A stretch of DNA of 64,000 nucleotides from a virus (IMGVR_UViG_3300044911_003339:41162-105161); one strand, 5' to 3'. Shown: positions 1-20,922, counted from the first letter of the stretch. The notes: a model not told the origin generated them from the letters alone. Program-made: numbers and translations.

Positions 1-2463
1 AACGAGATCCACGGCGAGCGCGTCCAGGAGATCATCGAAGACCCGAAGGAGCGAGAGAATCTCGCGAAGCAGATCATCATCTCGAACGACGGCTTCATCC
101 TCGATGGGCACCATCGCTGGGCAGCGCTCACGACGATCGACCCGAAGGCGAAGATCAAGACGCTCCATGTGGACATGCCGATGCGCTCTCTGCTGAAGGA
201 GGCGCACGCGTTCGAGGGTGTGGAGTACCAGAAGAGCGAACAGGAGACGGACATGGGCGGCGACCTCATCGACAACCTCGAACTGCTCGCGAAGGGCGAC
301 ACGCTCGTCGGCTTCTACTCGCCCGGTGTCGCTCGCGGCGGCAAGTACTACCGCCGAGTCCCGACCGGGAATCCGAAGCACCCGTGGAGGTACTTCTACA
401 CGGAGGCGGAGTACAAGGACGCGATGAAGGACGCTTCGCACGTCGGCGGGACCGAGGCGAAGCGGGCGCGCGTGAAGAAGCGCGTCTTCGTGAGCGAGAA
501 GGAGGCGCGCGAGAAGTACGGCCTTCCTGGTACGACGAAGGAGCTTCACGCGCCGGACGGGAACTACCCGCCCGAGCGGAAGAAGCTCCACGAGGAGATC
601 ATCTCGCACTTCCTCGACGGCAAGGGGAAGCCCCCCGCAGGCAAGAAGCCCGTCGCGCTGCTCACCGTCGGAGGTCCGGCCGCGGGCAAGTCCACGCTGC
701 TGAAGCACCTCGGCGAGAACCTCGACGATTACGTGATGATCGCCGCCGACGACGTGAAGGAGAAGCTCCCCGAGTTCCAGCGCGCGCTCAACCTCGGGAA
801 TCGCAAGGTGACGCAGCCCGACGGCTCGGTCACGAGCGTGCCAGTCACGGCGAGCCACTCGGGCTGGATGGCGCACGACGAGAGCACGGACATCTCCGAC
901 GAACTGGAGAAGCGCGTCATCGCCTCGGGCAAGTCGGCCATCTTCGACGGCACGGGCAAGAACGTCCCGAAGATGCTCGCGAAGATCGCCGCGCTGAAGA
1001 AGGCCGGCTACCACGTGCGCGTGGTGATGCCGCACGTGCCGATGGGCGAAGCGATCAAGCGGCTGCACTCGCGCTCGGAGGACACGGGCCGCACGCTGCC
1101 CGTCGATGCGGCGATCGACATGCACCGGAAGATTCCGGGCAACTTCGAAGCCATCGCTCGCGCTGCCGACGACTTCTCGCTCTTCAAGTCGGGCAACCCG
1201 CCGAAGCCGATCTGGACGGGCGGCGCGGGTCAGGAGGACAAGATCCACGACCACGAGGAGATGTCGAAGTTCAACCTCGCGCGAGGACTGCACCAGGACA
1301 TCGGCGCAGAGGAGAAGGCGGGCGGAATCTACAAGAAGAGCGAGGACCCCGAAGCGCTCGACGCGACCGGCCCGAAGCAGCCGCACCACACCATGAACGA
1401 GTTCATGGAGATCCTCTCGCGCTGGAACGGCTCCATCGACAACCACGAGGACGGCCGGAGCAAGGTGCCGCACGACGGCGACATCGAGGACGGCCTCGCG
1501 GACGTGATTCCCGACGCGGAGGACGAGACCGTCAAGCACCTGAAGCGTCGTGCTCCGAAGGCCAAGAAGGCGAAGGGCGCTCGCTTCATGGAGCGAGGCG
1601 AGGTCGAGAAGAGCGGCGACCTCATCGACTCGCTGGAAGCTCTCGTGAAGGGCGGCGAGGCTGCGGGGCACAAGCTGGTGCACTCGGAGAATCCGCGTGC
1701 GCACGGAGGAGACGTGACGAAGAGCGACCGCTCGCGTCGCCTGGAGGAGAAGATCATGAGCGACGAGATGCAGAAGGGCCTCTACCAGTTCCAAGGTCTC
1801 GGCTCGGGCGAGGTCCCGGACCAGTACCTCTACGATTACCTCTGCGCGTTCGTCGAAGAGGCGTACGAGCACGAGCGGCAGGAGAAGGTGCACCAGAACA
1901 CGCTCGTGCCGCCGTCGAGCACGGGGGCGAGCATCGAGGACGTGTGGGCGACCGCCGTCTTCAACGAACTCGTCAGCATGATGGGCTCGAACGCGAACCT
2001 GAAGCGCGCGGCGGTGAAGTACAACGTCACGAAGGACGTGATCGCGCACATCCTCCGCAGCAAGGGCCTCGTGCGCCCCTTCTCCGACGCCGGCACGTGG
2101 ACGAGCGACTACGACTCGATGCGCGCGATGGACGGCGAGGGCGTCACGCGCCCGCTCGTGCTCTCCGAGTCGGCCCGCGCGCAGTACCGCGACATCGTGC
2201 CGGATCCGTTCGGGCACAACGTCGGAGTCGCGCTCGCGAAGGCCGAGCCCGCGCCGACCGCGCCGCTCTTCATCGACGATTCCCACGACCCGCACGGGAA
2301 TCTCGCGAAGGCCGAGCGTGCTCGCCTCGCACTCGTGGACTACCGGCAGAACGCCGAGTGGCGGCCGAACGTCTCGCCGACGTGTATGATCCACGGCAGC
2401 GCGGATCTCACGAAGTCGATGAATCTCTCGAACCCGCACGCTCGCTGCACCTGCCCGCGCTGA
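1..2463 (+). CDS. Multi-domain head-associated protein (5' partial): ParB/Srx-like domain + zeta-toxin-like P-loop kinase
   Basis: Frame of ORF 169..2463 is open back to base 1 (NEIHGERVQ...IIISNDGFILDGHHRWAAL, ParB/Srx DGHHR motif). Further on: GGPAAGKST Walker A, DDVKEKLPEF, HDES, IFDGTG, typical of zeta toxin/AAA_33 kinases. Lies directly upstream of the portal. Confidence 0.8.
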   Translation, partial: NEIHGERVQEIIEDPKERENLAKQIIISNDGFILDGHHRWAALTTIDPKAKIKTLHVDMPMRSLLKEAHAFEGVEYQKSEQETDMGGDLIDNLELLAKGDTLVGFYSPGVARGGKYYRRVPTGNPKHPWRYFYTEAEYKDAMKDASHVGGTEAKRARVKKRVFVSEKEAREKYGLPGTTKELHAPDGNYPPERKKLHEEIISHFLDGKGKPPAGKKPVALLTVGGPAAGKSTLLKHLGENLDDYVMIAADDVKEKLPEFQRALNLGNRKVTQPDGSVTSVPVTASHSGWMAHDESTDISDELEKRVIASGKSAIFDGTGKNVPKMLAKIAALKKAGYHVRVVMPHVPMGEAIKRLHSRSEDTGRTLPVDAAIDMHRKIPGNFEAIARAADDFSLFKSGNPPKPIWTGGAGQEDKIHDHEEMSKFNLARGLHQDIGAEEKAGGIYKKSEDPEALDATGPKQPHHTMNEFMEILSRWNGSIDNHEDGRSKVPHDGDIEDGLADVIPDAEDETVKHLKRRAPKAKKAKGARFMERGEVEKSGDLIDSLEALVKGGEAAGHKLVHSENPRAHGGDVTKSDRSRRLEEKIMSDEMQKGLYQFQGLGSGEVPDQYLYDYLCAFVEEAYEHERQEKVHQNTLVPPSSTGASIEDVWATAVFNELVSMMGSNANLKRAAVKYNVTKDVIAHILRSKGLVRPFSDAGTWTSDYDSMRAMDGEGVTRPLVLSESARAQYRDIVPDPFGHNVGVALAKAEPAPTAPLFIDDSHDPHGNLAKAERARLALVDYRQNAEWRPNVSPTCMIHGSADLTKSMNLSNPHARCTCPR

Positions 2464-2499
2464 ACGCGCAGGAGTCGCCCCGAGGCGTAGAGGAGACGC

Positions 2500-4299
2500 A
2501 TGGGCCTGTTCGACAAGTTCAAGGATGGATTCGAAGCGCTCGCGAAGGCGCTCGGCGAATCCGAGGAAGACGGCGAGGACATCCCCTTCGACAAGATGCG
2601 GGATGCCCTCGTGCGTTCAGGTCTCGCGGAACCGACGGAGGAGAAGCCGCGCGCGCTCTTCCACGATCCCTACGCGGTCACGGACTGGGGAGGCTGGCGA
2701 GAGCGACCGTCGTCGATGACGTACGAGACGCTTCGCATGATGAGCGTGAAGAACACGGTCATCGCCTCCATCATCCAGATCCGGTGTAATCAGGTCGCGC
2801 AGTTCGGTCGGCCTCAGCAGGGCCCGTACGACAAGGGCTACCGGATCATCCCGCGCGACAGGCGGGACAAGAAGAAGGTGCTCACGCCCGCGGAGAAGAA
2901 GCAGGCCGCGGAGATCGAGCGGATGCTGGAGACGACGGGCTTCCTCCTGCCCGGCGAGAAGCCCGCGGATCGCGACAGCTTCCGCACCTTCTTGCGGAAG
3001 GCCACGCGCGACATCCTCACCTACGACCAGTGGGCGTTCGAGAAGATTCGCGACCGCAAGGGTCGCGTCTCGCGCTTCATCGCGCTCCCCTCAGAGAGCA
3101 TCCGGCCGGCGAGCGCGGACATCGAGCACATGGACGTGAAGTCCCTGCGCGAGCGCGTCTCGCACGTCCAGGTCTACGAGGACACGCCGATCGCCGAGTT
3201 CAGCCCCGAGGACATCGCGTGGTGCGTGATGAATCCTCGCTCCGACCTGCGCGCGAACGGCTTCGGCTTCTCGTACATCGAGATGCTCGTCTCGCTCGTG
3301 ACCGCGTGGCTCTACGGGTTCGAGTACAACCAGCGATTCTTCATGCAGGGCAGCGCCATCAAGGGCATCCTGAACGTGAAGGGCGCGATTCCCGATCGTC
3401 AGCTTCGTGCGTTCCGACGCATGTGGTATTCGATGGTCTCGGGCGTGAGCAACGCGTGGAAGACGCCGATCCTCAACAGCGAGGATCTCCAGTGGGTCCC
3501 GCTCCACGTGAACAACCGCGAGATGGAGTACGGGCAGTGGATGGACTGGCTCACGAAGCTCACGTGCGCCGTGTTCGGAATCGATCCCGTCGAGATCAAC
3601 TTCATCTTCGGCAACAGCGGGCAGTCGTCGTCGCTGAACCAGTCGCGCCCGAACGCGGCGGAGGTCCAGGAGTCGAAGGACAAGGGCCTCGTGCCTCTCA
3701 TGGACCACATCGCCGACAACCTGAACATGCACATCATCTGGGAACTCGCACCAGATTTCGAGTTCGCCTTCACGGGCTTCGACGCGCAGGCCGAGGAGAA
3801 GGAGCAGGAGGGTCGCATCAAGGCGGTCACGAACTACAAGATGATCGACGAGGTGCGCGCGCTCTACGAAGACGATCCGCTGCCGAACGGCATGGGCCAA
3901 CTGATTCTGAATCCGACCTACATGCAGTGGGCGATGCAGAAGGAGCAGGCCGCGATGGGCGGACCTCCCGGTGGAGGTGAGGGCGACATGGGCATGGGCG
4001 ATCCCGACGCGCTGCCCTCCACAGCACCGGGCAACGACGAGGAAGACCTCGCAGGGCCTCCCCAGAAGGGCCCGCCCAAGCCCGGCCAGCCCCCGAAGGG
4101 TCCGCAGGGCCCGCAACCCCCGAAGGGCGCGCAGAAGCCCCCAGGGAAGCCCTTCGGCTCCCCCGGTGAGGAAGCGCTCCAGGCGTCAGCCTTCGTCGAG
4201 CGCACGGCGCGTGGCATCCTCCGCAAGTCCCGCGTACACACGCGCACCGAAGGCGGGCGGGAAATCATCGACATCGAACTGCCGGAGGATCCGACATGA
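2500..4299 (+). CDS. Portal protein (SPO1/Twort-like)
   Basis: Motifs IIQIRCNQV..F, DILTYDQ..FE, NPRSDL..GFGFS.IE, YNQRFF.QG..KGIL, MEY..W...L...CAVFGIDP.EINF and SKDKGL.PL match Herelleviridae-type portals; RBS GAGGAG; Pro/Gly-rich C-terminal tail. Confidence 0.92.
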   Translation: MGLFDKFKDGFEALAKALGESEEDGEDIPFDKMRDALVRSGLAEPTEEKPRALFHDPYAVTDWGGWRERPSSMTYETLRMMSVKNTVIASIIQIRCNQVAQFGRPQQGPYDKGYRIIPRDRRDKKKVLTPAEKKQAAEIERMLETTGFLLPGEKPADRDSFRTFLRKATRDILTYDQWAFEKIRDRKGRVSRFIALPSESIRPASADIEHMDVKSLRERVSHVQVYEDTPIAEFSPEDIAWCVMNPRSDLRANGFGFSYIEMLVSLVTAWLYGFEYNQRFFMQGSAIKGILNVKGAIPDRQLRAFRRMWYSMVSGVSNAWKTPILNSEDLQWVPLHVNNREMEYGQWMDWLTKLTCAVFGIDPVEINFIFGNSGQSSSLNQSRPNAAEVQESKDKGLVPLMDHIADNLNMHIIWELAPDFEFAFTGFDAQAEEKEQEGRIKAVTNYKMIDEVRALYEDDPLPNGMGQLILNPTYMQWAMQKEQAAMGGPPGGGEGDMGMGDPDALPSTAPGNDEEDLAGPPQKGPPKPGQPPKGPQGPQPPKGAQKPPGKPFGSPGEEALQASAFVERTARGILRKSRVHTRTEGGREIIDIELPEDPT

Positions 4300-5060
4300 G
4301 CGTCCGCACCTTCCTCGACATGAGCTTCCAGATCGGACTGGAGAACAGTCTCGACGATTCGCTGTTCGAGCGCACGAACTCGCAGCTTCTCGACACGCTT
4401 GACCACGCAACCGGAGGTGTCGTGTCGCTCGCGGCGCTTCAGACGAACGTCACGCTGCCCTTCGGCGACGTGACCGAGGCGCGAATCCTCTACATCGAGG
4501 CCGAGGACGGCGACGTGCGCTTCACGCTCGGCGGCGGGCTCGCGACCTCGGGGCGTATCGACGCCGTGGGCGCGGCCTACCCGACGGGCTTCGTCGGCGC
4601 AGAGACGCTCGACTTCGAAGTGGACGCCACGGCGATCGCCGTGACCTTCACGTCGGGAGACCAGACGATCACGCAGGTCATCAACCGTATCAACGCGGCG
4701 TGCGCGCTCGCGGGATTCGCCACGCCGATCGCGAAGGTGAGCGCGGGGCAGCTTCGCCTCGAAAGCCCGACGACGGGCACGTCTTCGTCGATCGAGATCA
4801 TCGGAGGCACAGGCCGCGCGACGCTCGGCCTCCCCGCTCCCTCCACCATCAACTCAGGTGCGAACTCGACGCCCGGCACGAGCCCCGTGGAGCTTCGTCG
4901 TCCCGCGGACCCCGCGGGCGCGAGCGCCGCGGCAGGCGTGAAGGCGATCTTCTTCGGCACCGTGAAGACGAGCAGCATCGTCATGGAGAATCTCTCCGAC
5001 AACGTGACGAAGGTGCGCTGGGCGATCGCGGGAGACCTCACGACCGACGACGCGTGCTGA
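4296..5060 (+). CDS. Hypothetical virion structural protein
   Basis: ATGA overlap with the portal stop; Gly/Thr/Ala-rich beta-type composition; typical codon usage. Confidence 0.7.
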   Translation: MSVRTFLDMSFQIGLENSLDDSLFERTNSQLLDTLDHATGGVVSLAALQTNVTLPFGDVTEARILYIEAEDGDVRFTLGGGLATSGRIDAVGAAYPTGFVGAETLDFEVDATAIAVTFTSGDQTITQVINRINAACALAGFATPIAKVSAGQLRLESPTTGTSSSIEIIGGTGRATLGLPAPSTINSGANSTPGTSPVELRRPADPAGASAAAGVKAIFFGTVKTSSIVMENLSDNVTKVRWAIAGDLTTDDAC

Positions 5061-5070
5061 CGGAGGTCCC

Positions 5071-6885
5071 GTGGCTCGCGTACGCATCGAAGCCCCCGAG
5101 GGACTGGACCGACTGACGCTCGCGCAGATCGTCGTCGGTCCTCACCTGCTTCTGAAGTCCCAGCACGTCCGGCATGCCGGCGAGCGGACGTTCTCGCGCT
5201 ACGTCGCGCTCCAGGAGTTGAACGAGCACGTCGTGAAGTCGTTCGAGGAGACGCTGAAGCAAGCGCTGAAGCGCGCGGACGATTACATGCAGCGCACGGT
5301 GCTGCTCGCCGACGTGGGGCTGCGGAAGGCGGACGAGCACCTCCCCGCGTTCCCTCCGCTCTTCACGCCCGAGCAGATGGAGGCGGTGCGCCGCATCCTC
5401 ACCGATCACGTGCACGGCTTCATCGCGACGACCGTGGATCCGAATCTTCTCTCGCAGCACGAGGTCGCGCGCCTGATCGCCGAGGGAGTGATTCCCGCGT
5501 CGATGAGCTACGTGTTCCAGGCCGAGCCGGGGCAGGAGGCTCCTCTCGCCGAGGACTGGATCGGAGCGGCCTACACCTACGGCGCGATGCTCGGCTCGAT
5601 GCGAGAGGGCGATGACGCCGCCTACGTGAAGTCGCTGTCGTGGCCGACGTTCGCCAAGAAGCAGAAGGCACAGCCGCTCGTGCTGACCCCGCACGAGCAG
5701 GCCGCGCTCGACGTGGCGAAGCACAGCGCGGGCATCCACTGCCGCGGGCTCGGGAACGAAGTCGCCGACGACTTCTCGACGATCGCCATCGACACGGACC
5801 GCGCGCTGCGGAAGCGATTCGAGCACGAGATCCAGACCTCGACCGAGGCGAACATCGCGCGCCGCGACGCGTGGCGGAAGCTCGCGAGCGACCTCGGGCA
5901 CAAGACCGGGGACTGGGCGCGAGGCTTCGGGCGCATCGCCGCGACCGAGAAGCAGCGCGCGTTCCAGGAGGGATTCTCCACGACGCTGAAGAAGCGCGAG
6001 AAGAAGCGCCCCGAGGACGTGCGCGTCGCCAAGCTCCCGGCACCCGACGCGTGCCCCGACTGCGTGCGCCTGCACCTCACCGCAGGTCCCGGTTCCAAGC
6101 CGCGCATCTTCTCGCTCGCAGACCTGGAGGCCAACGGCTCGAACATCGGCGTGAAGCGCGCCTCGTGGAAGGCCGTCGTCGGGCCGGTGCATCCGTGGTG
6201 CGGGTGCGAACTCGTGCACGTGCCCGACGGCTGGGATTTCGACGACGAGAACAAGCTCATGCCCACGAAGCTCGAACGCAGCGCACGCCTGGAGGCGGAC
6301 CTGCGGAAGAGCGCGGACAAGCAGCGACACCTGACCTACAGGGAATCGGTTCCCGAGAAGGGCATCGTCGTTCGCGTCGGCGACCCGCTCACGCGAGCGG
6401 AGATCGACAAGGTGATCGCGCGCACGCCCGAAGTGCTGTTCGACCACAAGGTCGGCGTCACGCTCATCACGACCGATCTGCCGACGGTGCAGAACGTGCT
6501 CGACCCGCACGATCTCGCCTACTGGACGGGCAACGAGATTCGCCTCTCGCAGACTCTCGCGCCCGAGCGCGTGAACCTCGTGCTCATGCACGAGTTCGGT
6601 CACGCGCTGAACGTGTTCCTCTACCAGAAGTTCGACGAGAACACGGACCGCGTGCGCGCGTGGCACGACGCCCTGTTCGCCATCGCGAAGGTCGAGGGCT
6701 TCGTCTCCGATTACGCGACCCGCGAGCCGATCGAGAACGCAGCCGAGGTGACCCGGCTCTACCTCTACGACCGGCCGAAGCTCATGCGGGAGTTCCCGCG
6801 GCAGTTCGCCTTCTGCCAGAAGGACTACCGCGACATCCTCCCGCCCTGGAAGTGGAGGAACGATGGCGATTCTAAAGATCGCTGA
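5071..6885 (+). CDS. MuF/SPP1 gp7-like head morphogenesis protein with C-terminal zincin metallopeptidase
   Basis: RIAATEKQRA, CPDC and GPVHPWCGC (MuF HPxCxC motif); C-terminal HEFGH...FVSDYA....ENAAE zincin signature; GTG start after GGAGG. Confidence 0.85.
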   Translation: MARVRIEAPEGLDRLTLAQIVVGPHLLLKSQHVRHAGERTFSRYVALQELNEHVVKSFEETLKQALKRADDYMQRTVLLADVGLRKADEHLPAFPPLFTPEQMEAVRRILTDHVHGFIATTVDPNLLSQHEVARLIAEGVIPASMSYVFQAEPGQEAPLAEDWIGAAYTYGAMLGSMREGDDAAYVKSLSWPTFAKKQKAQPLVLTPHEQAALDVAKHSAGIHCRGLGNEVADDFSTIAIDTDRALRKRFEHEIQTSTEANIARRDAWRKLASDLGHKTGDWARGFGRIAATEKQRAFQEGFSTTLKKREKKRPEDVRVAKLPAPDACPDCVRLHLTAGPGSKPRIFSLADLEANGSNIGVKRASWKAVVGPVHPWCGCELVHVPDGWDFDDENKLMPTKLERSARLEADLRKSADKQRHLTYRESVPEKGIVVRVGDPLTRAEIDKVIARTPEVLFDHKVGVTLITTDLPTVQNVLDPHDLAYWTGNEIRLSQTLAPERVNLVLMHEFGHALNVFLYQKFDENTDRVRAWHDALFAIAKVEGFVSDYATREPIENAAEVTRLYLYDRPKLMREFPRQFAFCQKDYRDILPPWKWRNDGDSKDR

Positions 6886-9800
6886 TCTCGTGAAGAGCGG
6901 AGGTCCGTACATCGGGCCGAAGGGCGGTGTGTGGGCCGACCCGCAGCACACGGTGCCGTGGAAATCGGATCATGAGGACACCACCTCTCACTTGTTCCAC
7001 TCCACGCCCGCGTACGCGATGAGCCGGATCAAGCGGGAAGGTCTTGCTCCGCGCAAGGGCGCAGGTCTCTTCCAGCACGGCGGCTACGATCTGCACTCGC
7101 AAGGCAAGGTGTTCCTCTCGAACAACCTCTACGCGGCGAAGCAGTGGCACAGCAAGGTCGAGGCTCAACTCGAACACCACCACGATAATCCGAAGCACCA
7201 CGTTGCAGTCATGCTTCGTGTGAAGCCTCGGGAGACGCATCTCGACGATGTTGGAGACCGCGATGTGAGCGGCTCTCGCTTCGTGCGCGACGTTGTGCCT
7301 GCAACCGACATCGAGTTCTTCCACGAAGGTACGAAGCGCTGGAAGCCGGTGAAGGATTACAAGCACGGCACGCACGGTATCCCGGACGACCACTACGAAG
7401 CTCACGCGCCGCGCGACGAAGAGGCAGACGCCGCCGAGAAGGCCGCAGCGAAAGAGGCACGACGCGCGAAGCGCGAAGCCGAGGAGCAGGCGACTCGCGC
7501 GCGGCTCGCGGCGCTCCAGGAGGAGCGCGCGAAGCGCGAGGCTGCGGAAGCGCAGGTTCACTTCAGGGATTCTGACGAAGGCAAGGCAATCCTCACGCGC
7601 TGGAAGGGCCTCTCCCCCGAAGAGCGTCAGGCGAAGGCGAAGCGCATCCTCGACGCGCCCCGCCCTTTCCCCGGCGCTCCCTCGATGCTGTCGCTCGGGC
7701 AGCGAGGCGAGGTGTGGCGCGAAGCTCTCGGAGTCGATGAGAAAGGGAATCTCGTGAAGTCGCGATTCATCATCAAGGCAGGCCCCTCAGGTGGGGGTTG
7801 GATGCCGATCCCCGGAGGCCACCACGGAGGGCTTCGGCGACGACACGGCGCGGGCTGGGAGTACTGGTACCCGAACGGAGCCCCGCACTTCGTGCTCCGC
7901 GAGCAGAAGCACCCCGAGGAGCAGCACGGGCACGAGCAGATCGACCCGGAGCCCTCGCACTGGGCCCTCGTCACGCCCGGCCCCGGCCTGCCCCCGGTCG
8001 GGTGGACCGCGGGCGGCGTGAACCCGCACGACACGAAGACCCCCGTGAAGGAGGCCGGTGTCTCGGGGAAGCTCTACCGCATCAAGAATCCGCACATCCG
8101 AGAAGGCTGGGCGCTGCTCACCGACGTGCGCTCGGGCGAGGACCACATGGTCCAGCACGACCGCGTGATGCCCGTTCGGTGGCTTTCGCCCGAAGAGAGG
8201 GCTCTCCAGGGCTCTACAGAGCCTCAGGAGCCGTTTTCGACCTGGAAGCCAGGGGTGGGTCCCTCCAAGCGCCCGAGCGGCGGAGGGGCGTCTGAGGGCA
8301 AGCGGATGCCCTCCTTCCCCGACTCCCGAGCGCTGCCCGGAACCGAGACGCACAAGCTGGAGAACGGCGCGTACGTCTGGCGCAAGGTCACGCGGTACGA
8401 AGCCGACGAGGACGGCACCACTCGCAAGGTCGAGCGGCTCGCGCCTGGAATCCCCGACTCCGACAAGATCGCGCTCATCGCAGAGTACGAGGGCCTCGTC
8501 GCCAAGACGGCGAAGCGCGTGCGCAGCGCGTTCGGGCTCAGCGCCCGCCTCTCCACCGGCCCCGGTCAGCGCACGGTGGACGACACGCTCGTCGAGCTTC
8601 GGCAGGCCGGCGTGGAGGGTCTGCTCCACGCCATCGACAGCTATCGCCCCGTGGGCCCGTTTGCAGCGCACGCCCAGCAGTACGTTCGCGATTACGCGCG
8701 TCTCCACGCCGCACGGGAGTTCGCGGGAGGCATCGCGATCCCGCGGCGGCATGCGCGCCTGCTCTCGTCCTACATCGCGGCCCGCGCAGAGGCCGCGCGC
8801 GTGAGCGGAAGCCACGACCCGAGCCCCGAGGTGGTCGCGGAGTTCTGGAAGCCGAAGAAGCGGGACCTGCACTCGGGCCTCTCGCCCGAGGAAGGCGGAG
8901 GAACGATTCCTCTCGCTGGCTACACGCTGAAGCGCAAGACGACCTCGACCGATCCCGAGACGGGCAAGAAGAAGACGACCGTCGAGGGCGAGGACGTGGT
9001 GCAGCAGCCCGGCCGCCTGGAGTGGGCGCAGCAGTTCCACGCGTTCCTCGTCGGGCAGGGAGGCATGGCGGACATCGACGAGCAGGCCGCGCTGTTCCCC
9101 GGCCTCGGCGTCGGCACGGGGCTCGGCGCGGACGAGCGCATCGCCGTGCGCGAGGCGATGATGCGCGCGCTCCCTCCCGACGGGACGATCGTCACGGTCC
9201 AGGCGGGCCCGCAGGCCCAGTTCCGCGGCGAGACCTGGAAGGCGATCGACCTCGCCCTCGGGCTCTCGTCGGGCGATCCGCTGCCTCTCGACGAAGTGGT
9301 CCGTCGCGTGCCCGTCGAGGGATCGCGCGGAGGTGAGTGGAAGCGTCTCGGAAGCTCGCGAGCGCGCGCCGCGATCGAGGCGCTCATCCGCGACGGCCTG
9401 AACACGGTCGCGCGTCACCTGCGAGGCGACGAGGACCGAGCAGCGTCGCTCGCGCAGGCCCTCGTGACGAAGCTCGTGCCGACCGAGGCTCCGAAGGAGC
9501 GGCTCCCCACGATGCGAGAGCGAATCCGCGCTGCGATGGCCCGCATCACCCCGGCCGAGGTGCAGCGCTGGCGCGAGGAGACGCGAGCGCGCTACCCCGA
9601 GCGGCCCGACATCGGCCGACGGATGTCTCGTGTCACCGATTCCGAAGCGAAGCGCCGCATCGTCGAGGAGCGCATCGCCGCAGCCCCGCTCACGCCCGAG
9701 ATGCACGAGGCGATGCTCCGCACGATGACGGCGATTCGCCAGGGCGTCTCGGCCTCGGGCCAGAACGTCTTCGGCGTCGTGGACCCGAAGGGGTCGAAGA

Positions 9801-9976: not shown

Positions 9977-9984
9977 GGTTCTCC

Positions 9985-10329
9985 ATGAAGAGGTTCTCCA
10001 TCGACCCCGCCACGCTGCCGACCACATGGCGGGTCGGGCGGCGTGTCGGCAATAGCGGGCTGGAGCACGCCTTCGATCTCCGCCGTCGGGATGACGGCGG
10101 AATCTCCATCTCGAACGTCGAGCACCCGCTCACGGAGACCGAGCGCACCATGCTGCTCTCGCACTTCGGCAAGGCGCGCGTCGTGACGATCGGAGGCGAG
10201 GCCGACAACGGCGCGCTCGTGACGACGATGCAGCGCCACGAGCCGGGGGAGATCGAGAACTTCGTGGAGGCGGTCTACTCGCTGCCCTCACCCTTCATGG
10301 TGATGCCGAACGCTCGGAGGGAGACATGA
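9985..10329 (+). CDS. Hypothetical protein (114 aa)
   Basis: ATG at 9985 after GAGGT, in the frame of track ORF 9337..10329; fills the gap and overlaps the next start (ATGA). Confidence 0.7.
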   Translation: MKRFSIDPATLPTTWRVGRRVGNSGLEHAFDLRRRDDGGISISNVEHPLTETERTMLLSHFGKARVVTIGGEADNGALVTTMQRHEPGEIENFVEAVYSLPSPFMVMPNARRET

Positions 10330-13300: not shown

Positions 13301-16300
13301 CGGCTTCGTGATGGACGAGCGCGTCTCGTCCATGATGGACGAGCAGGCTGCCATCATCCGAGAGCGCGCGCTCCAGGTGACCGGAGAGGACTGGCCTCCC
13401 GCAGACCAGATCGTCGATGCGGACGGCAACGTGAATCCCAACGGAGTGCTGCGCGGCATGGTGACGGGCGCGATGGGCATGCAGCCCGGCGCGCATCGCA
13501 TCGAGGCGCTTCAGCGCGTCGCGATGAACAACGGTCGCCTCATCGCTGCGCACTTCATGGGCACGGGCAAGACCGCGTTCTCGATCGCAGCCGCGCAGAT
13601 GATGCGGAACCTCGAATCCCGCGAGCAGCCCGGCAAGCCGCACCCGAATCAGGTGAAGAAGAAGGTGCTCGCGCTCGTGCCGCTCAACACCGCGAACAAC
13701 TACGCCGACGAGGTGGAGGTGTTCACCGGAAGGCCCGCAACGATCATCGGCTCGGGCTCGCTCGCGGGCAGCGTGCGGATGTTCCGCATGCCGAAGGACC
13801 AGGGCCAGAAGAAGAACGAGACGCGCGAGGCGTTCATCGCGCGCTCGCTCGCCGCATGGAAGGCGGCGGTCAAGACCGACCCGACGCTGTGGAACCCGTG
13901 GGCAGACGATTCCCAGATGTGCGTCTGCCCCTACGAGTACTTCCGCGACAACGAGGAGTTGATGCGGGCCACGGAGATGTTCGACGGGCTCGTCGTGGAC
14001 GAGGCGCACAACATCGCACGTGAGAACGAACTCTCACGTGCGGTCGAGCGCTGGAATCCGAACATGAACATGTTCCTCATGCTCACCGGCACGCCCGTGA
14101 CGAACACGCTCGACGTGCTCCCGCGTATGGCGAGCCTCGTGAGCGCGGGCAAGGTGAACCTCGGCACGAAGCAGGAGTTCACGGAGCGCTACCTCGTCGG
14201 CTCGGCTGTCGCGAAGGGCGAGGGCGCGAAGAATCCTCCGAAGACGGACCTCAACCCGCAGCGTGCCGGCGAACTGGCGGCGATCATGCGTCCGCTCATG
14301 CACATCGCGACGACGCAGGACGTGAAGGGCAAGACGATGCCCGCGGTGCTGCTCGACGAGAACAAGCCCGCGCACATGATCGGTCAGCAGGCGCGCATGT
14401 ACCGACTCTCGATGGCGAAGTTCACGCCCGAGGAGAAGGCGGCGATCATCGAGAGCGGTGCGGTCGGCACCGACGAGTCGTACGCGCTCGATGACGAGGG
14501 TCGCCGCAAGATCGGTGTCGCTCGCTCGATCGCGAACTGCCTCGCCTACAAGGCACCCGACCAGCGTGAGAATCTCACGTACGAGTCGAAGAGCACCGAG
14601 GAGAAGAAGGGCAAGGTCATCGAGAAGACCGTCACCCGCGTCTTCTCGCTGCCCACGCACGCGATGATGACGACGAAGCGCCCCGAGGGCTGGGGCGGGA
14701 AGTGGCCGACGTTCTCGGAGGTCGAGAAGGGAATCGTCGAGCCGGGCTACTACAACGTGCTCTCGGAGTACTACGAGCGCCTCTTCGGCGTGACGTACGA
14801 CTCCGTGGAGGGCAAGCCCATCGCGAAGGAGATCCTGGACGGCGTGAAGCGCGGCGACTACGTGACGCCGAGCGGCGCGCCGTGGGGTACGGTCGTGAAT
14901 CCCGATTACGGCCCAGAGGGCATGATCTGTCGCGGCACGCTCGACCCGGTGACGGGCAAGATCGAGCCGCTGCGGAAGGAGATCGTCGAGAACGGGCAGA
15001 AGCGCGTCGTCGAGGTCAAGCCGGGCACGCGCTTCATCCGCGATCCGAACTCCAAGGCGGCGGGCCTCTTCTACCACGAGGATGACTGGAACTTCACCGG
15101 CCGCTTCATCGACTCGGGCGAGGGAGGCGGCGGCGAGGGTGGAGGCGAGGACGATCCGTCCGACCCGAAGCCCGCGTCTGCCGGCAAGCAGGCCCCGAAG
15201 GACCCCTCGCTCTCCATCCAGCGTTCGACGAAGCGCCGGAAGGAGCGAGAGATGTTCGACCTCGCGGTCACGGCGGGCAACGCGAAGAGCGACGAACTGG
15301 AGCAGTACATCCACAACGCGCTTCGCGACGACAACCTCGGGCCCGATCAGCAGTTCATCCTCTTCGGGAATCGCATCGGCTCTTCCTTCCGCACGATGGA
15401 GAGCAAGCTCCGCACGATGGGATTCCAGGACGTGAACGAAGCGCTCGGGCACCCCGAGTGGAGCACGGCCGAGGACAAGGCGATGATGCCTCGGAAGTTC
15501 TTCGTGACGTACGCGGGCAAGGGAGCAACGCTCGGCGACCGCGACATCAACTCGGAAATCTTCCGACAGAAGCTCGACCAGTTCGGCCACAAGACCGGGC
15601 AGTCGATGTTCGTCTTCCGCACGCTCAACGGCGGCACGAAGAAGCCACCCAAGGTCGGCGAGATGCGCGAGGGCTGGAGCCGTGGCCAGCGGAAGCGCAT
15701 CGCCGACGCTCTCGCGGAGCCCACGCGCAAGACGGCCGAGGGCAAGCCTGCGGGCCTGGAGGTGCCGATGCGCGTGACGAGCGTCGAGGTCGATGGTCGC
15801 ATCGAGCAGCGGTACCTCTACGAGTCGGACATGAAGCCGAAGGATCGCGCAGAGTTCCTCCGGCTGGAGAAGGAGCGCCGCGGCGCGGACAAGGCGCGCA
15901 AGCAGGCGATCGACGGCGAGATGCGCGCGCTCGCCGACCGCTACTGGAGCGACCGGATTCCTCTGTCCGATCACTACCAGTACGTGCTGAACAACACGCA
16001 GATCATGGTGGCGACCGACGCCGCGAACGTCGGCCTCAACTGGCCTGCTCCCAAGCTCGTCATGTACGACTCGCTCTTCTCGCCGATGGACGAGTGGCAG
16101 CGCATGACGCGTGCGGCCCGCATGCTCGACGCAGCGGTCACCGGACCCGCGAAGAAGTACGTCGAGAAGATCGACGCGAAGCTCTCCGAGATGGAGAAGC
16201 AGACCGGGCTGAAGGAGTACGGACCAGAATCTTCCCTTCAGGCGGTGCAGGACGCGATCGAGTCGCTCCCCGAGGACGAGCGCGCCGAGCTTCTGAACCT

Positions 16301-16961
16301 GGAGGGAGGAGGCCCCGATCAGATCGTCGAGGCCATCTTCAGCCGTCGCGCCATGGACAAGATCGCGAAGCTCCGCCCCGAGGTCGGCGCGCATCTCCGG
16401 CAGGCCGGCGCTGCGCCTGATCCCGATCGCCCCGAGATCCGCATCCGTCCATCGGCCATCCAGGAATCCGACGTGACGAACGAGATCATCCGCAAGCACC
16501 TCACGCCCTTCGAGCAGCGCGTGCTCCGAGGACGCATGTACCTCGTGGACGTGAAGCGGCTCACGACCTCGTGCGACGTGCCCGAGATGAAGTCGATTCG
16601 CATCGAAGACCCGATGACGGGCAAGAAGACCACGGTTCAGGTCCCGACCGGCAAGTGGTCGGTCGAGGCTCCGACGCAGGCCGAGCGAAGCCAACTCACG
16701 CAGGGCCGCATGAAGATGGTGCCCTACGAGAAGGCGATGAAGGCGTTCCAGAACGCGCAGCCGGTGAAGACCGACTACGACTTCCTCGTGACGCCTCGCG
16801 GGAGCGTGCGTAGCTTCTCGATCATGCCTGAGGAGATCGAGCGCGAGAAGGCGAGTCGCGCGAAGCGCGAGGTCGCGAAGCCGAAGCCCACGAAGACGAA
16901 GAAGTCGGAGAGCTACAGCCGATTCTTCATTCCAGCGCGAACCGCGCGCGGGGAGGCGTGA
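10326..16961 (+). CDS. Giant polyvalent protein: zincin metallopeptidase + SNF2/SWI2 (SF2) helicase/ATPase
   Basis: HELGH...TAYA....EDFAESF zincin; AHFMGTGKT Walker A; VVDEAHNI; LTGTP; ATDAANVGLN...QRMTRAAR (motifs V/VI); 2211 aa. Confidence 0.88.
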   Translation: MSRFVIPALRAALPDALAKSFQRGPLAQHKYLKREPYFVGGKLRWRYWYASDELRKQGMVEHDPAGEHEHHLLANIADIYEHFKSVIRSTAATPTTAIEGIFQAAVDDPKAQRVPQVAMSPAFQAQHVQPFIDAEAKGAPPEASPIVRVHDALEMVPDYLLKLVMGGTKNTKHPGYKGLGPYPGLSALVMNRQEDEGADYANTAGWAHPKTGELHLLGGGSGKHGSDSSYSFLDGGDPATAPTPTDFNDAKVHLEKVVWHELGHHVHFTLETEQPDVMDSWRDLSTGPGPKPTAYAHTAWWEDFAESFSGCFALPKVMAMRCPERYDWMRQHVLKSLPERSALLKMSDEELAWWNKKKTTPPGKLLMHLKSNAPARRFGAYYSDKDQFFTVGKGGRTVYLRFGPSEPDQEDGWTQVPSTIDPETGLPVYDAAYGPRFKVQGNLKEMYDERGNPLDDFQAFLYLGQDDPEVQKFVADTMEKYVATLPPNSPQPTEYDAVQWLAAKGGDEAKALETRLLSYKMYTSLGYKRESEKISAKEAHTTEKERKRVEKERAKGGTGYLDRHDWVPVEIPRSEFVQKSGTFKFDNVRPAEYQPWQAREWDPVTKTSRVKTVYDPAAGKVVPVRTATVYEQENPDGTTFRVTVAEGEPFSIGQTILAPVSVKLPDGRISQDWQPYKLSVEDGEMTVTNLAKKFRVDPEALLRQNHRYMRGQITDPMLAALLNPSGEVIRDQFDLMRLMKLAAEQPTPPTAWVSVRGKTGSIAHFKVSFDGSGPPRVEGRQWAAKLGKDPTEPIRLDQILGKDDELIGVETVRERKAKEVKIKPGGLVWVTVKNHLGDAKRVMARYIEKKSFEEKGKKKNAHVVQVLPGQGTGLPKDRVIVTRVNKSDESQIPGKPEIRRRFVEPMQKDVLLYADEVRVGSGDRDTSGVIKILPPKNGSVTKAQLAAIPGVRIIGLEKARNKKGGAVTEELPEGVELAISPRDLPAFREYLGGFVMDERVSSMMDEQAAIIRERALQVTGEDWPPADQIVDADGNVNPNGVLRGMVTGAMGMQPGAHRIEALQRVAMNNGRLIAAHFMGTGKTAFSIAAAQMMRNLESREQPGKPHPNQVKKKVLALVPLNTANNYADEVEVFTGRPATIIGSGSLAGSVRMFRMPKDQGQKKNETREAFIARSLAAWKAAVKTDPTLWNPWADDSQMCVCPYEYFRDNEELMRATEMFDGLVVDEAHNIARENELSRAVERWNPNMNMFLMLTGTPVTNTLDVLPRMASLVSAGKVNLGTKQEFTERYLVGSAVAKGEGAKNPPKTDLNPQRAGELAAIMRPLMHIATTQDVKGKTMPAVLLDENKPAHMIGQQARMYRLSMAKFTPEEKAAIIESGAVGTDESYALDDEGRRKIGVARSIANCLAYKAPDQRENLTYESKSTEEKKGKVIEKTVTRVFSLPTHAMMTTKRPEGWGGKWPTFSEVEKGIVEPGYYNVLSEYYERLFGVTYDSVEGKPIAKEILDGVKRGDYVTPSGAPWGTVVNPDYGPEGMICRGTLDPVTGKIEPLRKEIVENGQKRVVEVKPGTRFIRDPNSKAAGLFYHEDDWNFTGRFIDSGEGGGGEGGGEDDPSDPKPASAGKQAPKDPSLSIQRSTKRRKEREMFDLAVTAGNAKSDELEQYIHNALRDDNLGPDQQFILFGNRIGSSFRTMESKLRTMGFQDVNEALGHPEWSTAEDKAMMPRKFFVTYAGKGATLGDRDINSEIFRQKLDQFGHKTGQSMFVFRTLNGGTKKPPKVGEMREGWSRGQRKRIADALAEPTRKTAEGKPAGLEVPMRVTSVEVDGRIEQRYLYESDMKPKDRAEFLRLEKERRGADKARKQAIDGEMRALADRYWSDRIPLSDHYQYVLNNTQIMVATDAANVGLNWPAPKLVMYDSLFSPMDEWQRMTRAARMLDAAVTGPAKKYVEKIDAKLSEMEKQTGLKEYGPESSLQAVQDAIESLPEDERAELLNLEGGGPDQIVEAIFSRRAMDKIAKLRPEVGAHLRQAGAAPDPDRPEIRIRPSAIQESDVTNEIIRKHLTPFEQRVLRGRMYLVDVKRLTTSCDVPEMKSIRIEDPMTGKKTTVQVPTGKWSVEAPTQAERSQLTQGRMKMVPYEKAMKAFQNAQPVKTDYDFLVTPRGSVRSFSIMPEEIEREKASRAKREVAKPKPTKTKKSESYSRFFIPARTARGEA

Positions 16962-16962
16962 G

Positions 16963-17268
16963 ATGCCGTTGCTCGGGAAGCAGATCGACCCCATCTCGAT
17001 GTTCCAGGGAGGCCCCTTCGGCGGGGCCCCTCAGGGCGCGATCGACCTGGAGGCGTTCGAGAAGATCACCAGCGCGGACCTCGCCTTCAAGCGGCTGAAC
17101 TGGCTCCGCAACTACGACGTGGTGCTGCGCGGCTTTCACGCGCCGTCCGACATGCAGCGCATGTGGCGCGCGGTCTTCCGCTCCTCACTCGCCTACGGCT
17201 CGCCCATCCCAACCGACATGATTCCGTACGCACGCGCGCTCGGCGTCGTGATCCCGTCGAGTTCGTGA
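16963..17268 (+). CDS. Hypothetical protein
   Basis: Tightly packed after the SNF2 gene, RBS GGGAGG, typical codon bias. Confidence 0.65.
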   Translation: MPLLGKQIDPISMFQGGPFGGAPQGAIDLEAFEKITSADLAFKRLNWLRNYDVVLRGFHAPSDMQRMWRAVFRSSLAYGSPIPTDMIPYARALGVVIPSSS

Positions 17269-17495: not shown

Positions 17496-17555
17496 CGCTG
17501 CTGCCGGATTCGTGACACACCATGGACCGTGGCCTGCTCCCGTGTGGAGCACGAG

Positions 17556-17591
17556 AGGCGACCGAAGGAGAAATCCATCGGTCGCCTTTTT
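17556..17591 (+). terminator. Probable intrinsic terminator between the cargo genes and the protease/scaffold/capsid genes
   Basis: AGGCGACCGA (17556-65) / TCGGTCGCCT (17578-87), a perfect 10-bp stem followed by a T run. Confidence 0.65.
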
Positions 17592-17621
17592 CGTTCTCGG
17601 GTCGCAGATCGCGCGGACGCG

Positions 17622-18377
17622 ATGAAGACCTCTCCCCAGCGCAAGTTCAGCTTCGACTTCGATGTCGAGGTGTTCGAGAAGGCGAGCCCCGAAGGAACGG
17701 AGCGCCGCATCGGCGGAATCGTGTCCACCGATCACCTCGATCGTCAGAGCGAGGTGCTGCTTCAGGAGGGCCTGGACTTCTCGCCCTTCCTGAAGGGCGG
17801 GTGGTTCAACGACAACCACGAGTCCACGACGGACAGCGTGATCGGCTACCCGACGGCGGCCGAGCTTCGTCACCTGCCGGACGGCAGGAAGGGCTGGTAC
17901 GTCGAGGGCTACCTCCTGAAGACCGACCGCGCGAATCGGATCTGGGACCTCGCGACCGAGCTTCAGCGCTCGGGCTCGGGGCGCAAGCTCGGATTCTCGG
18001 TCGAGGGCTCGATCGCCGAGCGCGACCCGGACGACCCGAAGAAGGTCCGCAAGGCCGTCGTGCGCGAGGTCGCGATCACGAAGTGCCCGGTCAACACGAA
18101 CACCGCGCTGCACGTGCTGGCGAAGTCGCTGGCCGTTGGTGCGGGTGGGCCGCCCTCAGGGCCGACGGGTGACGCGAGCGTGCTCGCGCCCGAGGCTCTG
18201 GAGGGCGTGAGTCCCGCGCGCCCGAGTCCGAAGGACCCGAAGAAGCGCCGCAAGGTCAAGCAGCGGATGAACAAGTCCGAGGCTGTGGATTTCTTGCTGT
18301 CGGTTCGGCCTGGGATGTCTCGGGCGCTCGCAGAGCGCGTGGTCGAGTACGCGATTCGGTGGCACCCGGCCGCCTGA
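17622..18377 (+). CDS. Prohead (capsid maturation) protease
   Basis: IGGIVST..LDRQ.E...Q.GLDF..F...GWFN.NH, IGYPT, YVEG.L, LGFSVEG, VAIT..PVN are characteristic of SPO1/Twort-type prohead proteases; start chosen downstream of the terminator. Confidence 0.88.
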   Translation: MKTSPQRKFSFDFDVEVFEKASPEGTERRIGGIVSTDHLDRQSEVLLQEGLDFSPFLKGGWFNDNHESTTDSVIGYPTAAELRHLPDGRKGWYVEGYLLKTDRANRIWDLATELQRSGSGRKLGFSVEGSIAERDPDDPKKVRKAVVREVAITKCPVNTNTALHVLAKSLAVGAGGPPSGPTGDASVLAPEALEGVSPARPSPKDPKKRRKVKQRMNKSEAVDFLLSVRPGMSRALAERVVEYAIRWHPAA

Positions 18378-18392
18378 AGAGGAGAAGAGGAC

Positions 18393-19427
18393 ATGAGCGG
18401 AAGCAACGTCGAAGTGGACGTGAGCGGTCTGGAGGCCAGCCTGAACGATCTCGTGAAGGCAGCCGACGCGACCGATCTCGTCAAGGGCAAGGGCGCAGGC
18501 GGTTCGGTGAACCGGGACTACTCGGGTCACATGGACGAGCGCGGCAAGGTCGGCGGAGGTGCCGCGGGCAGCGGCGACATCGGCGGCATCGACGACATGA
18601 TGATCGGCAAGATGGGCGAGACCGCGATGTCGGCCCTCGCGTCGGCGGGCTTCAGCGCGCCGCAGATCGCCGCCTTCATGTCGGGCAAGGCCGCGGACGA
18701 GGACGAGGACGAGAGCGACGACGAGGACGAGAGCGACGACGAGGACATGAGCGGTCAGGCCGACGGCTCGTTCGTCTCGCACAACCGCCCCGAGCCGACC
18801 GGCAAGATGGCTCCTCCGATGCCGCCCTTCCGCGGCAAGGCGAAGAAGAGCGGCGCGGGCGAGGGCGAGCCCCTCAACAAGTCGCTCGACATGCTCCGGC
18901 AGGACCCGGACATCGGCGACGCGATCGACGTGTCGGCGTACCTGGAGGCCATGACCGCGCGTGTCGCCGAGCAGATCGACGGGCTCGCGAAGGGCGTCCA
19001 CGGCGCGCGCACGGAGCAGGCGCAGGTCAACCGCGCGATGGCCGCGGCACTCTGGCAGACCGGCAAGCTGGTGAAGAGCCAGCAGGCGATCATCCAGGCG
19101 CTCGGCGAGCGTCTCGGAATCGTCGAGGCGACGCCGGTCCCGCCGAAGGGCGTCCAGGACCCGCGTCGGGCTGCCGCGCTCGCGAAGGGATTCGCGGGCG
19201 AGGCGGGCGGGCCGGGCTCGCGTCAGATGAAGAAGAGCGAGATCCTCGGAGCGCTCTCCTACATGACGCTGGAGAAGGGCATCCGCGAGATCAACGGCCA
19301 GAAGACCTCCGAGGTCATCTCGCTGTTCGAGGGCGGCAACGTGATCGCCCCCGAGACCATCCAGGCGGTCGAGAGCTTCCTCCGCCAGAACCCGAGCGAC
19401 GCCGCGAAGGCGCTCTCGTACCGCTGA
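18393..19427 (+). CDS. Probable scaffolding protein
   Basis: Between protease and capsid gene; acidic low-complexity tract, coiled-coil segment, many LxK[S/A/G] sites. Confidence 0.72.
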   Translation: MSGSNVEVDVSGLEASLNDLVKAADATDLVKGKGAGGSVNRDYSGHMDERGKVGGGAAGSGDIGGIDDMMIGKMGETAMSALASAGFSAPQIAAFMSGKAADEDEDESDDEDESDDEDMSGQADGSFVSHNRPEPTGKMAPPMPPFRGKAKKSGAGEGEPLNKSLDMLRQDPDIGDAIDVSAYLEAMTARVAEQIDGLAKGVHGARTEQAQVNRAMAAALWQTGKLVKSQQAIIQALGERLGIVEATPVPPKGVQDPRRAAALAKGFAGEAGGPGSRQMKKSEILGALSYMTLEKGIREINGQKTSEVISLFEGGNVIAPETIQAVESFLRQNPSDAAKALSYR

Positions 19428-19497
19428 ACAACGTCTGGGCTCGCTCGGAAGTGATTCCGAGTGAATCCACCGAACCGAAGAGAGAAAGACCAGGATC

Positions 19498-20922
19498 ATG
19501 AACACCACCCCGTTCGTCAGCGCACGCGACTACGGCGGCTTCGGGTCGAGCAGCCCCGACGAGATCGCCGCACTCAGGAAGGCCCTCTACGCGGGCCAGG
19601 ACGTGAACGCCCCCGCGGTCGTTCCCGGCGAGGGCTTCCCGCTCCGCACCGAATCTCTGGAGGCGAGCTTGAAGGTGCTCACCTACGAGATGGACGAGAT
19701 CAAGCTGTTCAAGACGATCAGCAAGATTCCCGCGACGAACACCGTCGAGGAGTTCAACCGTCTCCTGAGCTACGGCCGCGGCGGCAGCCGACGCTTCAAC
19801 CTCGGCTGGATGACCGAGGGCGATCTTCCCGAGGAGGAGGACTCGACCTACGAGCGCATCACGATGCAGATCAAGTTCCTCGGCGTGGTCGGCCGCGTGA
19901 CCCACGTCGCGAACACGATCCGCGCCGCGCACGGCAACGTGATCGCGATGGAGACGCAGAACAAGACGATGGAACTGCTGAAGCAGTTGGAGAACGCGCT
20001 GTTCTTCGGCGATTCCTCGCTCATCCCCGAGCAGATCGACGGCCTCGAACGCCTCATCACCGCGGGTGCTCCGAACAACGTCATCGACCTCCGCGGTGGA
20101 CCGATCACCGAGGAGATCATGAACGACTCGCTGCTCCAGATCCGCGACAACTTCGGCATGGCGACCGACTGCTACCTCGGCACGGGCCCGTTCGCGGACC
20201 TCGCGAAGCAGGTCTACGACCGTCAGCGCTTCGGCGTCGCTCCGGCTCCGGGCGTGCTCGGCGCGCAGGTGACGGCGTTCCAGGGCCAGCACGGCAAGGT
20301 GTCGATGCACGACCACGTGTTCATCACGGAGGGTCAGACGGCGCTCGCTGCGGGCCTCGGCTCGACCACGAAGCGCGCGGCGGCTCCGACCATCACCGTC
20401 GCTCCCGCGGCCGGTGCGGCGGCGGGCTCGCTCTTCACCGCGGCCGACGCGGGCACCTACATCTACCGCGTGGTGGCGGGCAATCGCTTCGGCCTCAGCG
20501 TCCCCGTGAACTCGGCGGGCGTGGCGGTCGTCGCGGGCGACGGCGTGACCTTCACGGTCGCGGACGGCGGCCCCCCGAGCGCGACCTTCTACGAAATCTA
20601 CCGCACGACCCCCGGAGGCTCGGCGGCAGATGCTCGTCTCATGACGCGCGTCGCGCGCACGGGTGCCACGCAGGTCATCACCGACCTCAACGCGGACATC
20701 CCCGGCACGTCGAAGGGCTTCATGCTCATGCAGAACGCGCGCTCGTTCTCGTGGGCGCAGCTTCTCCCGATGACGCGCATCCCGCTCGCCGCGATCGACA
20801 CGTCGATCCGCTGGGCGCAGGTGCTCTACGGCGGCGTGAAGATGTACACGCCCGCGAAGAACATCGTGTTCAAGAACATCGGTCGCCTGCCCGGCTCGCT
20901 CCCGTCGTCGGTCGTCCCCTGA
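19498..20922 (+). CDS. Major capsid protein (SPO1/A511/K-like)
   Basis: LRTESLE, ENALFFGDSSL...DGL..LI...NVID.RG, FGMATD.Y, QLLPMTRIPLA.I......YG.....P.K...KNI parallel the A511/phage K capsid sequence; candidate N-terminal cleavage site LRK|A. Confidence 0.93.
   Translation: MNTTPFVSARDYGGFGSSSPDEIAALRKALYAGQDVNAPAVVPGEGFPLRTESLEASLKVLTYEMDEIKLFKTISKIPATNTVEEFNRLLSYGRGGSRRFNLGWMTEGDLPEEEDSTYERITMQIKFLGVVGRVTHVANTIRAAHGNVIAMETQNKTMELLKQLENALFFGDSSLIPEQIDGLERLITAGAPNNVIDLRGGPITEEIMNDSLLQIRDNFGMATDCYLGTGPFADLAKQVYDRQRFGVAPAPGVLGAQVTAFQGQHGKVSMHDHVFITEGQTALAAGLGSTTKRAAAPTITVAPAAGAAAGSLFTAADAGTYIYRVVAGNRFGLSVPVNSAGVAVVAGDGVTFTVADGGPPSATFYEIYRTTPGGSAADARLMTRVARTGATQVITDLNADIPGTSKGFMLMQNARSFSWAQLLPMTRIPLAAIDTSIRWAQVLYGGVKMYTPAKNIVFKNIGRLPGSLPSSVVP

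Follow-up and report, generated by a model that had tools for sequence, protein, structure and literature searches.

Phages whose heads carry proteins along with their DNA include T4, P1, N4 and the giants related to phiKZ. Prohead proteases of the assemblin superfamily cut at sites that share one layout, a hydrophobic P3, a free P2 and a small P1′, as in [VL]-x-A/S of herpesviruses and [LI]-x-E/ of T4 (the slash marks the cut bond, and marks the predicted one below). Because this layout is common to the herpesvirus and T4 sites, a lysine-specific version of it is plausible. Here we describe the motif L-x-K/[SAG] in the head module of the virus sequence IMGVR_UViG_3300044911_003339, whose final 64 kb (positions 41162-105161 of 105,161 bp; 64,000 nt) are hereafter called the window. 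We consider it likely that this motif is the recognition site of the phage's own prohead serine protease, an enzyme of the HK97/assemblin type.

In T4, the protease gp21 degrades the scaffold core, removes an N-terminal peptide from the capsid protein and trims itself, and the injected internal proteins bear a leader of ~10-20 aa that ends in the motif. The system proposed here would work alike, with the same hydrophobic P3 and free P2. It differs in having Lys rather than Glu at P1, in a P1′ limited to Ser, Ala or Gly, and in a cargo that includes very large multi-module proteins whose internal sites are each followed by a conserved tag. The SPN3US/phiKZ motif also has Glu at P1. In that group, a short motif marks head and ejection substrates of the prohead protease (gp245/gp175), and most cuts free N-terminal propeptides, each of which can contain several motifs (PMC10052503, PMC5694885, PMC7411985). 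Our phage shares this use of a short motif, although the motif and the lineage are different, repeated site-plus-tag cassettes are not described for SPN3US or phiKZ, and the cleavages there are proven by mass spectrometry whereas those here are predicted from sequence. The proposed Lys-site system is a new variation on the T4/SPN3US principle.

Leaders that target internal proteins to the capsid (capsid-targeting sequences, CTS) have been described for T4 (PMC9024508, PMC9026906). DarB of P1, a protein of 250 kDa, is encoded beside the portal and protease genes and is targeted by an N-terminal signal no longer than 30 aa (PMC9024508); no shared leader was found in P1, unlike in the phage here. 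Zincin domains within polyvalent proteins have been predicted to process them (Iyer et al. 2017, PMC5512222). We found no mention of a prohead-protease motif or of tags in either PMC5512222 or the P1 Dar work (PMC9024508). Like the polyvalent proteins, which are thought to travel with the DNA, the predicted cargo of the lineage described here consists of large multidomain proteins (zeta-type kinase, SNF2, zincin, InPase, LPD1, ddrB-ParB) encoded beside portal and head genes, and single head-module polypeptides are predicted to hold several effector or enzyme domains.

Enrichment and position of the motif

The window has a G+C content of 66% and nearly all of its genes on the + strand; every feature given below lies on that strand, in window coordinates. 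Its head module reads ORF1, portal, a 254-aa protein, a 604-aa protein, a 1037-aa protein, a 2211-aa SNF2 giant, a 101-aa protein, protease, scaffold and major capsid protein (MCP). The original prediction held that the motif is commoner in these proteins than elsewhere, and the counts agree: the ten head-module proteins contain 27 L-x-K[SAG] against 7.4 expected from within-protein shuffles that preserve the composition of each protein (Poisson p 2.4e-8), and the other 75 proteins of the 105-kb genome contain 13 against 14.6 expected. In an unbiased scan of all 8000 a.bc patterns, L.KS topped the head-module ranking (11 vs 1.76) and L.KA fell within the top dozen. Seven control motifs ([SAG]K.L, L.R[SAG], L.E[SAG], L..K[SAG], LK[SAG], L.K[not SAG] and [IVMF].K[SAG]) occurred at expectation.

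The sites are also placed non-randomly along the proteins. Six of the ten head proteins have one within residues 1-35, compared with one of the 75 others (p 3e-6), and the remaining sites occupy short C-terminal peptides, linkers and the whole length of the scaffold. For comparison, we mainly used five relatives (G001-G005) whose MCPs are 69-78% identical to that of the window. When these and the window's genome are pooled, 167 sites occur in 42,251 head-module residues and 27 in 42,273 other residues, with almost none in tail genes. Sites hold their position among relatives: Leu at P3, Lys at P1 and a small residue at P1′ recur, whereas P2 and the flanking sequence are variable; no flanking position was informative beyond a mild acidic preference at P4-P5. 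Portal K167 and SNF2 K958 are not conserved, and ORF1 K635 and K697 fall within the zeta domain or at its border. Judged by these sequence comparisons, all four are probably chance sites. Among the 22 sites that had been listed beforehand, 21 are L-x-K/[SAG] in the proteins named, and VFEK/A of the protease is F-x-K/A. That list lacked LRK/A at K86 of the 604-aa protein, LEK/G at K295 of the scaffold, MNK/S of the protease and MQK/G of ORF1.

Sites in the capsid, scaffold, portal and protease proteins

The MCP (19498..20922) is of the SPO1/A511 type (phrog_752, E 4e-87) and has LRK/A at K28 (nt 19573-19584). All 14 relatives compared have L-x-K/A at this position, with R, Q, H or M at P2. As had been suggested from the known Lys/Ser maturation of the A511 capsid protein, K28/A29 aligns, with a one-residue shift, with the annotated mature N-terminus of A511 (..ALK/S, after residue 23; NC_009811) and also with ..LNK/A of SPO1, so that by alignment the site is homologous to the A511 maturation site. 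The cut after Lys and before Ser in A511 Cps has its like in the HK97 system of gp4 (Peptidase S78) and gp5; neither HK97 nor A511 has a cargo module, unlike the phage here. In HK97 gp5, the residue-103/104 junction, the published maturation cut, reads FNK/S, and three more [LI]-x-K/[SA] sites lie in the delta domain. In the head proteins of SPO1, [LIVMF]xK/S occurs 16 times against 1.9 expected, 11 of these in the scaffold, and it is absent from eight neighbouring genes (0 vs 2.6 expected). No consensus of L-x-K before a small residue turned up in the literature searched, which notes K/R at P1 alone, for phi12 (PMC8569155).

Along its whole length, the scaffolding protein (18393..19427) holds seven sites (K22, K31, K163, K200, K228, K265 and K295) where 0.5 are expected. 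Across 13 relatives, 37-86% identical, eight sites are conserved in position; their P2 can be V, L, R, T, S, Q, H, N, A or M, and their P1′ is always Ser, Ala or Gly. The portal (2500..4299; Pfam Phage_portal, phrog_12) has a site near each end, LAK/A at K16 (nt 2539-2550) and LRK/S at K576 (nt 4219-4230). The first is found in four of six relatives, at shifting positions within a non-conserved leader, and the second, as L[RE]K/S, in five of six. The portal of G001 carries an insertion of ~120 residues.

The putative enzyme is encoded between the portal and the scaffold and MCP genes (17622..18377), in the order portal ... protease-scaffold-MCP, and matches phrog_1028 'head maturation protease' (E 4e-50); its match to Pfam Peptidase_S78 is weak (E 0.011, under the cut-off). 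Its start is probably ATG 17622, because the 31-residue extension of the longest open reading frame (17529-17621) is absent from all relatives. The protein itself contains FEK/A (nt 17673-17684), LAK/S (nt 18117-18128) and MNK/S (nt 18267-18278), and the corresponding [FM]EK/[AS], L[AV]K/S and [MFLI]xK/[SG] are present in 12/12, 12/12 and 11/12 relatives. An AlphaFold model divides it into a core (29-158), a disordered segment (156-212) and a C-terminal helical hairpin, with the three sites in disordered segments that bound the core and the hairpin. Foldseek matches this model best to herpesvirus assemblins and to T4 gp21. Two residues that do not vary among 12 relatives, His66 and Ser126, may be catalytic.

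Sites at the module borders of the putative cargo proteins

In the cargo, sites coincide with the boundaries of protein modules. The 604-aa protein (5071..6885), which had been described as MuF-like with a peptidase domain, has LLK/S at K29 (nt 5149-5160), LRK/A at K86 (nt 5320-5331) and LRK/S at K413 (nt 6301-6312). Its MuF label was not confirmed by Pfam; the claim that LRK/S stands at the border to the peptidase holds, as K413 opens the linker that joins the N-terminal domain to the HExxH domain in an AlphaFold model (81-sequence alignment, pLDDT 89). All three sites lie in loops of this model, K29 in its least confident segment (26-32) and K86 in coil between helices. Among 92 homologues (40-86% identical), K29, K86 and K413 are kept in 84, 77 and 89, respectively, and proteins have 2.99 sites on average against 0.59 expected. 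The flanks of K86 are highly variable and rich in indels, as is a stretch just downstream of K413 in indels, and the K29 leader is fairly conserved. Many homologues (P0011, P0014, P0034, P0039, P0040, P0067 and others) are ~300 residues longer and contain intein/Hint domains (PF14890, PF13403).

The 1037-aa protein (6863..9976) comprises two modules, and has LVK/S at K11 (nt 6887-6898), LVK/S at K299 (nt 7751-7762) and LSK/A at K989 (nt 9821-9832). Blocks of homology break exactly at K299, separating module 1 (residues 9-298) from module 2 (301-1037), and the two modules are found separately and in other orders elsewhere. P0273, for instance, consists of module 2 alone, preceded by a 14-residue leader with the motif at its end. 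Each of the seven module 2 copies begins right after a hydrophobic-x-K/[SAG] with a common tag, GGGW.PIPGG ... WEYWYP, and all seven have a hydrophobic-x-K/[SA] ~48 residues from the end. The domain names that had been given to this protein fared less well. An RNA 2′-phosphotransferase (Tpt1/KptA-like ADP-ribosyltransferase, ART) match at residues 25-66, just after tag A (below), and a SigF-like region 2 match at residues 571-645 are weak (E 0.03 and 0.018) and fall far below the family cut-offs.

ORF1 (1..2463, the C-terminal 820 of 1121 aa, starting 902 nt before the window) is a putative cargo polyprotein with a zeta-toxin-type kinase module (Pfam Zeta_toxin, E 3e-20) and has seven L.K[SAG] sites against 1.5 expected. 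A peptide GDLID..LE.L.K/G, which had been noted as duplicated, is indeed present twice and brackets the zeta module. LAK/G at K399 (286..297) marks the upstream boundary and is followed by the basic-aromatic tag RGGKYYRR...PWRYFY, and LVK/G at K851 (1642..1653), in the second copy of the D.ID.LE.L.K/G linker, marks the downstream one. The same linker is present in G004, and in eight homologues the upstream border of the zeta module is L-x-K/[GSA] followed by tag B or tag A. In P0283, the K399-type peptide is a leader of 12 aa at the N-terminus, and after the downstream site comes the module with which ORF1 begins here; the cassettes are therefore permuted. Further sites lie towards the C-terminus (1768..2418): MQK/G at K893, LAK/A at K1048 and K1071, and LTK/S at K1106. 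An [LM]-x-K/G before GLY.F is found in six of six relatives and a last site [LI]-x-K/[SA] in five of six, and the positions of K1048 and K1071 are not conserved. The last ~230 aa of ORF1 are conserved directly 5′ of the portal in all five relatives. The label 'ParB-like' is dropped as unverified, as ORF1 gave no Pfam match for ParB.

The SNF2-helicase giant (10326..16961, 2211 aa; SNF2-rel_dom, E 5e-11 in Pfam) has an HExxH (HELGH) at residue 260. LAK/S at K19 (nt 10374-10385) is followed by tag B (HKY..R...W.Y.Y, nt 10410-10472). This N-terminal site is the sole conserved one, being kept in two related loci (L004, L005), and internal sites are sporadic. Dicing of the giant was rejected because these internal sites are not conserved. 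Since only the N-terminal site is kept, the protein is probably trimmed, losing a 19-residue leader. The proposal that polyproteins are split into separate enzymes is supported by the internal sites that ORF1 and the 604-aa and 1037-aa proteins have at module borders, and not by the SNF2 giant. The C-terminus of the giant (..SRFFIPAR.., 16915-16961) repeats its N-terminal peptide (MSRFVIPALR, 10329-10349) and may be a second leader-like signal.

Conserved tags and leaders

Tag A, GP[YF][IV]GP[KR]GG.WAD..HT..W, stands directly after K11 of the 1037-aa protein (6899..6961). Six phages hold 13 copies of it, 10 of them directly after the motif, and one protein of 1991 aa holds five. A profile of tag A, which took in the L-x-K columns, retrieved 786 representative metagenomic proteins with at most five tags each; in the top 150 proteins, 283 of 321 tags (88%; 147 diverse proteins) begin no more than six residues after a hydrophobic-x-K/[SAG], and P3 is Leu in 70% of the motif-preceded copies. 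Sampled proteins with tag A carry InPase, LPD1 and ddrB-ParB domains, which are domains of polyvalent proteins. This comparative evidence supports the earlier suggestion that the motif could flag cargo in related phages. None of tags A, B and C gave a Pfam match at E up to 1, and searching full texts for the core peptide of tag A returned no paper.

Leaders of 11-29 aa that end in the motif are present on the portal, 604-aa, 1037-aa and SNF2 proteins and are conserved in relatives; on standalone modules the motif peptide is an N-terminal leader of 6-16 residues. Overall, N-terminal leaders measure 6-30 residues and are either strand-like (M-[RK]-hydrophobic-V-I-P) or acidic-helical. An RF[VIF]I peptide, reported beside several sites, is indeed present in the window, in three copies; it seems to be a form of the strand-like leader and is not established as a signal.

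Assignment to the prohead protease and alternative explanations

Several observations weigh against the assignment of the motif to the prohead protease. Confidence in the model of this protein is low (pLDDT 64), its Foldseek matches have weak E-values (3e-3 to 1e-1), and two conserved sites within its core, FLK/G and VRK/A, may be structural rather than cut. The head proteins of A511 are not enriched in the motif, and the A511 site has L at P2, not P3; the rule therefore does not hold in this form for all SPO1-like phages. Deposited phages yielded no cultured relative, their best MCP identity being 35%, and tblastn with two tag A peptides found no tag A in deposited phages, such short queries having little power. 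The tag A profile, as noted, already took in L-x-K columns. Counts across relatives are not independent because the relatives share phylogeny. Finally, genes were called with a home-made GC3-based caller, so start codons are approximate.

The cargo itself encodes two HExxH domains, which on the proposal of Iyer et al. 2017 (PMC5512222) are candidate processing enzymes, and this too speaks against the prohead protease. We nonetheless regard it as unlikely, though it is the chief competing explanation, that the motif is cut by the cargo's own zincin-like domains (the C-terminal domain of the 604-aa protein and the domain around HExxH 260 of the SNF2 giant) rather than by the serine protease. The HExxH of the 604-aa protein is invariant in 81 homologues, and its modelled domain resembles M34 zincins, with weak Foldseek matches. 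The same motif, however, occurs in the MCP, scaffold, portal and protease, and it occurs in HK97 and SPO1 head proteins with no zincin gene annotated in the head regions examined. The homology of the MCP site to the A511 site argues in the same direction.

An uncleaved docking or structural signal, for example a helix-end motif that the scaffold, the portal or the inside of the capsid recognises during co-assembly, would account for the motif often terminating an amphipathic helix (D.I..LE.L.K), and the motif could belong to the conserved tags that it always precedes. We hold this to be improbable, since it leaves unexplained the homology to a mapped maturation cut, the eight copies in the scaffold, the combination, usual at assemblin-family sites, of a free P2 with a small P1′, and the use of the peptide as a 6-16-residue leader of standalone modules. 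Cleavage by a host protease, as known for staphylococcal phage 80alpha (PMC8569155), is very unlikely, as the module has a phage protease gene that itself has conserved sites at its domain borders, and the motif is kept across phages of 63-71% G+C and in SPO1 and HK97, which have unrelated hosts. Head proteins are rich in Lys (6.3% vs 3.4% elsewhere), and the idea that their composition or coiled coils produce the enrichment as an artefact is refuted for practical purposes by the composition-preserving shuffles, the first rank of L.KS among 8000 patterns, the seven flat controls and the keeping of positions while flanks vary.

Proposed processing pathway

If the motif is the site of the prohead protease, the enzyme would act inside the assembled prohead, where it would remove the 28-residue N-terminal peptide of the capsid protein, chop the scaffold into ~eight pieces, and trim itself and both ends of the portal. 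Cargo encoded around the portal would be processed by the same enzyme, losing leaders (~10-30 aa) and C-terminal peptides. Multi-module cargo would be cut between cassettes, at K399 and K851 of ORF1, K86 and K413 of the 604-aa protein and K299 of the 1037-aa protein; apart from K86, these are the sites that coincide with module boundaries. Each freed cassette would then start with a conserved Gly/basic/aromatic tag (A, B or C), and the SNF2 giant would probably lose just its 19-residue leader. From their likeness to T4 internal proteins, P1 DarB and the SPN3US ejection proteins, and from gene position and motif, we infer that the cargo proteins are packaged in the head and delivered into the host.

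The rule that emerges for a single, widespread uncultured lineage, and that is echoed in SPO1 and HK97, can be read from sequence: a probable Lys-specific maturation-protease site marks leaders, scaffold fragments and cassette borders, and conserved tags follow. It offers an alternative to the proposed zincin autoprocessing and predicts exact mature N-termini. A search for motif cuts in tryptic mass-spectrometry data from virions would be confounded, because trypsin also cleaves after Lys. As the motif is most likely a maturation-protease site, it can be used to predict head-packed proteins and their trimming, and effectors that metagenomic phages may inject can be listed as candidates with its help.

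More tentatively, the lineage may use a plug-and-play grammar of leader, L-x-K/ cut, 20-residue tag (A, B or C), effector and cut C-terminal peptide. Any effector cassette could then be loaded into the prohead, freed by the maturation protease and delivered with the DNA, with the tags at the new N-termini serving as retention or ejection signals. We view this broader scheme as possible but still somewhat doubtful. If it is true, sequence would suffice to read the injected anti-defence arsenal of hundreds of uncultured phages, and foreign proteins could be loaded into capsids by reusing the grammar.

Relatives, neighbouring genes and variation of the cargo

The nearest deposited phages are Bacillus SPO1-like phages. 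With a best MCP identity of 35% and a G+C of 66%, the virus shows no close similarity in its core head genes to Herelleviridae, the SPO1/A511-like phages, whose head genes are distant kin; many uncultured relatives are present in IMG/VR. Two conserved head-module proteins have no site. The 254-aa protein (4296..5060) has orthologues 3′ of the portal in all relatives, none of them with a site, and the 101-aa protein (16963..17268) follows the SNF2 giant.

The cargo module probably extends 5′ of ORF1 (genome 37252-40262; window -3909 to -899; locus L032:8253-11263). An upstream protein of 766 aa has LMK/G at K199, with tag B (HKYIARKPDGHGGWLYKY) ~30 residues on, and LRK/A 33 residues before its end, and a 238-aa protein with 9% Lys lies 3′ of it. 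Neither protein gave a Pfam match. Lys content in the head-module proteins is ~2x that in the rest of the proteome in this genome of 66% G+C. In relatives, Lys/Pro-rich runs are often found 3′ of the tags and may mean that the cargo binds DNA or balances charge.

Across G001-G005 (loci L004, L009, L011, L013, L014 and L024-L030), the cargo between portal and protease varies. The SNF2 giant and the 1037-aa protein are absent from this interval in G002, G003 and G005. In G004, more than 40 kb of mostly small genes, with the MuF-like gene inside, separates the portal from the protease-scaffold-MCP block.

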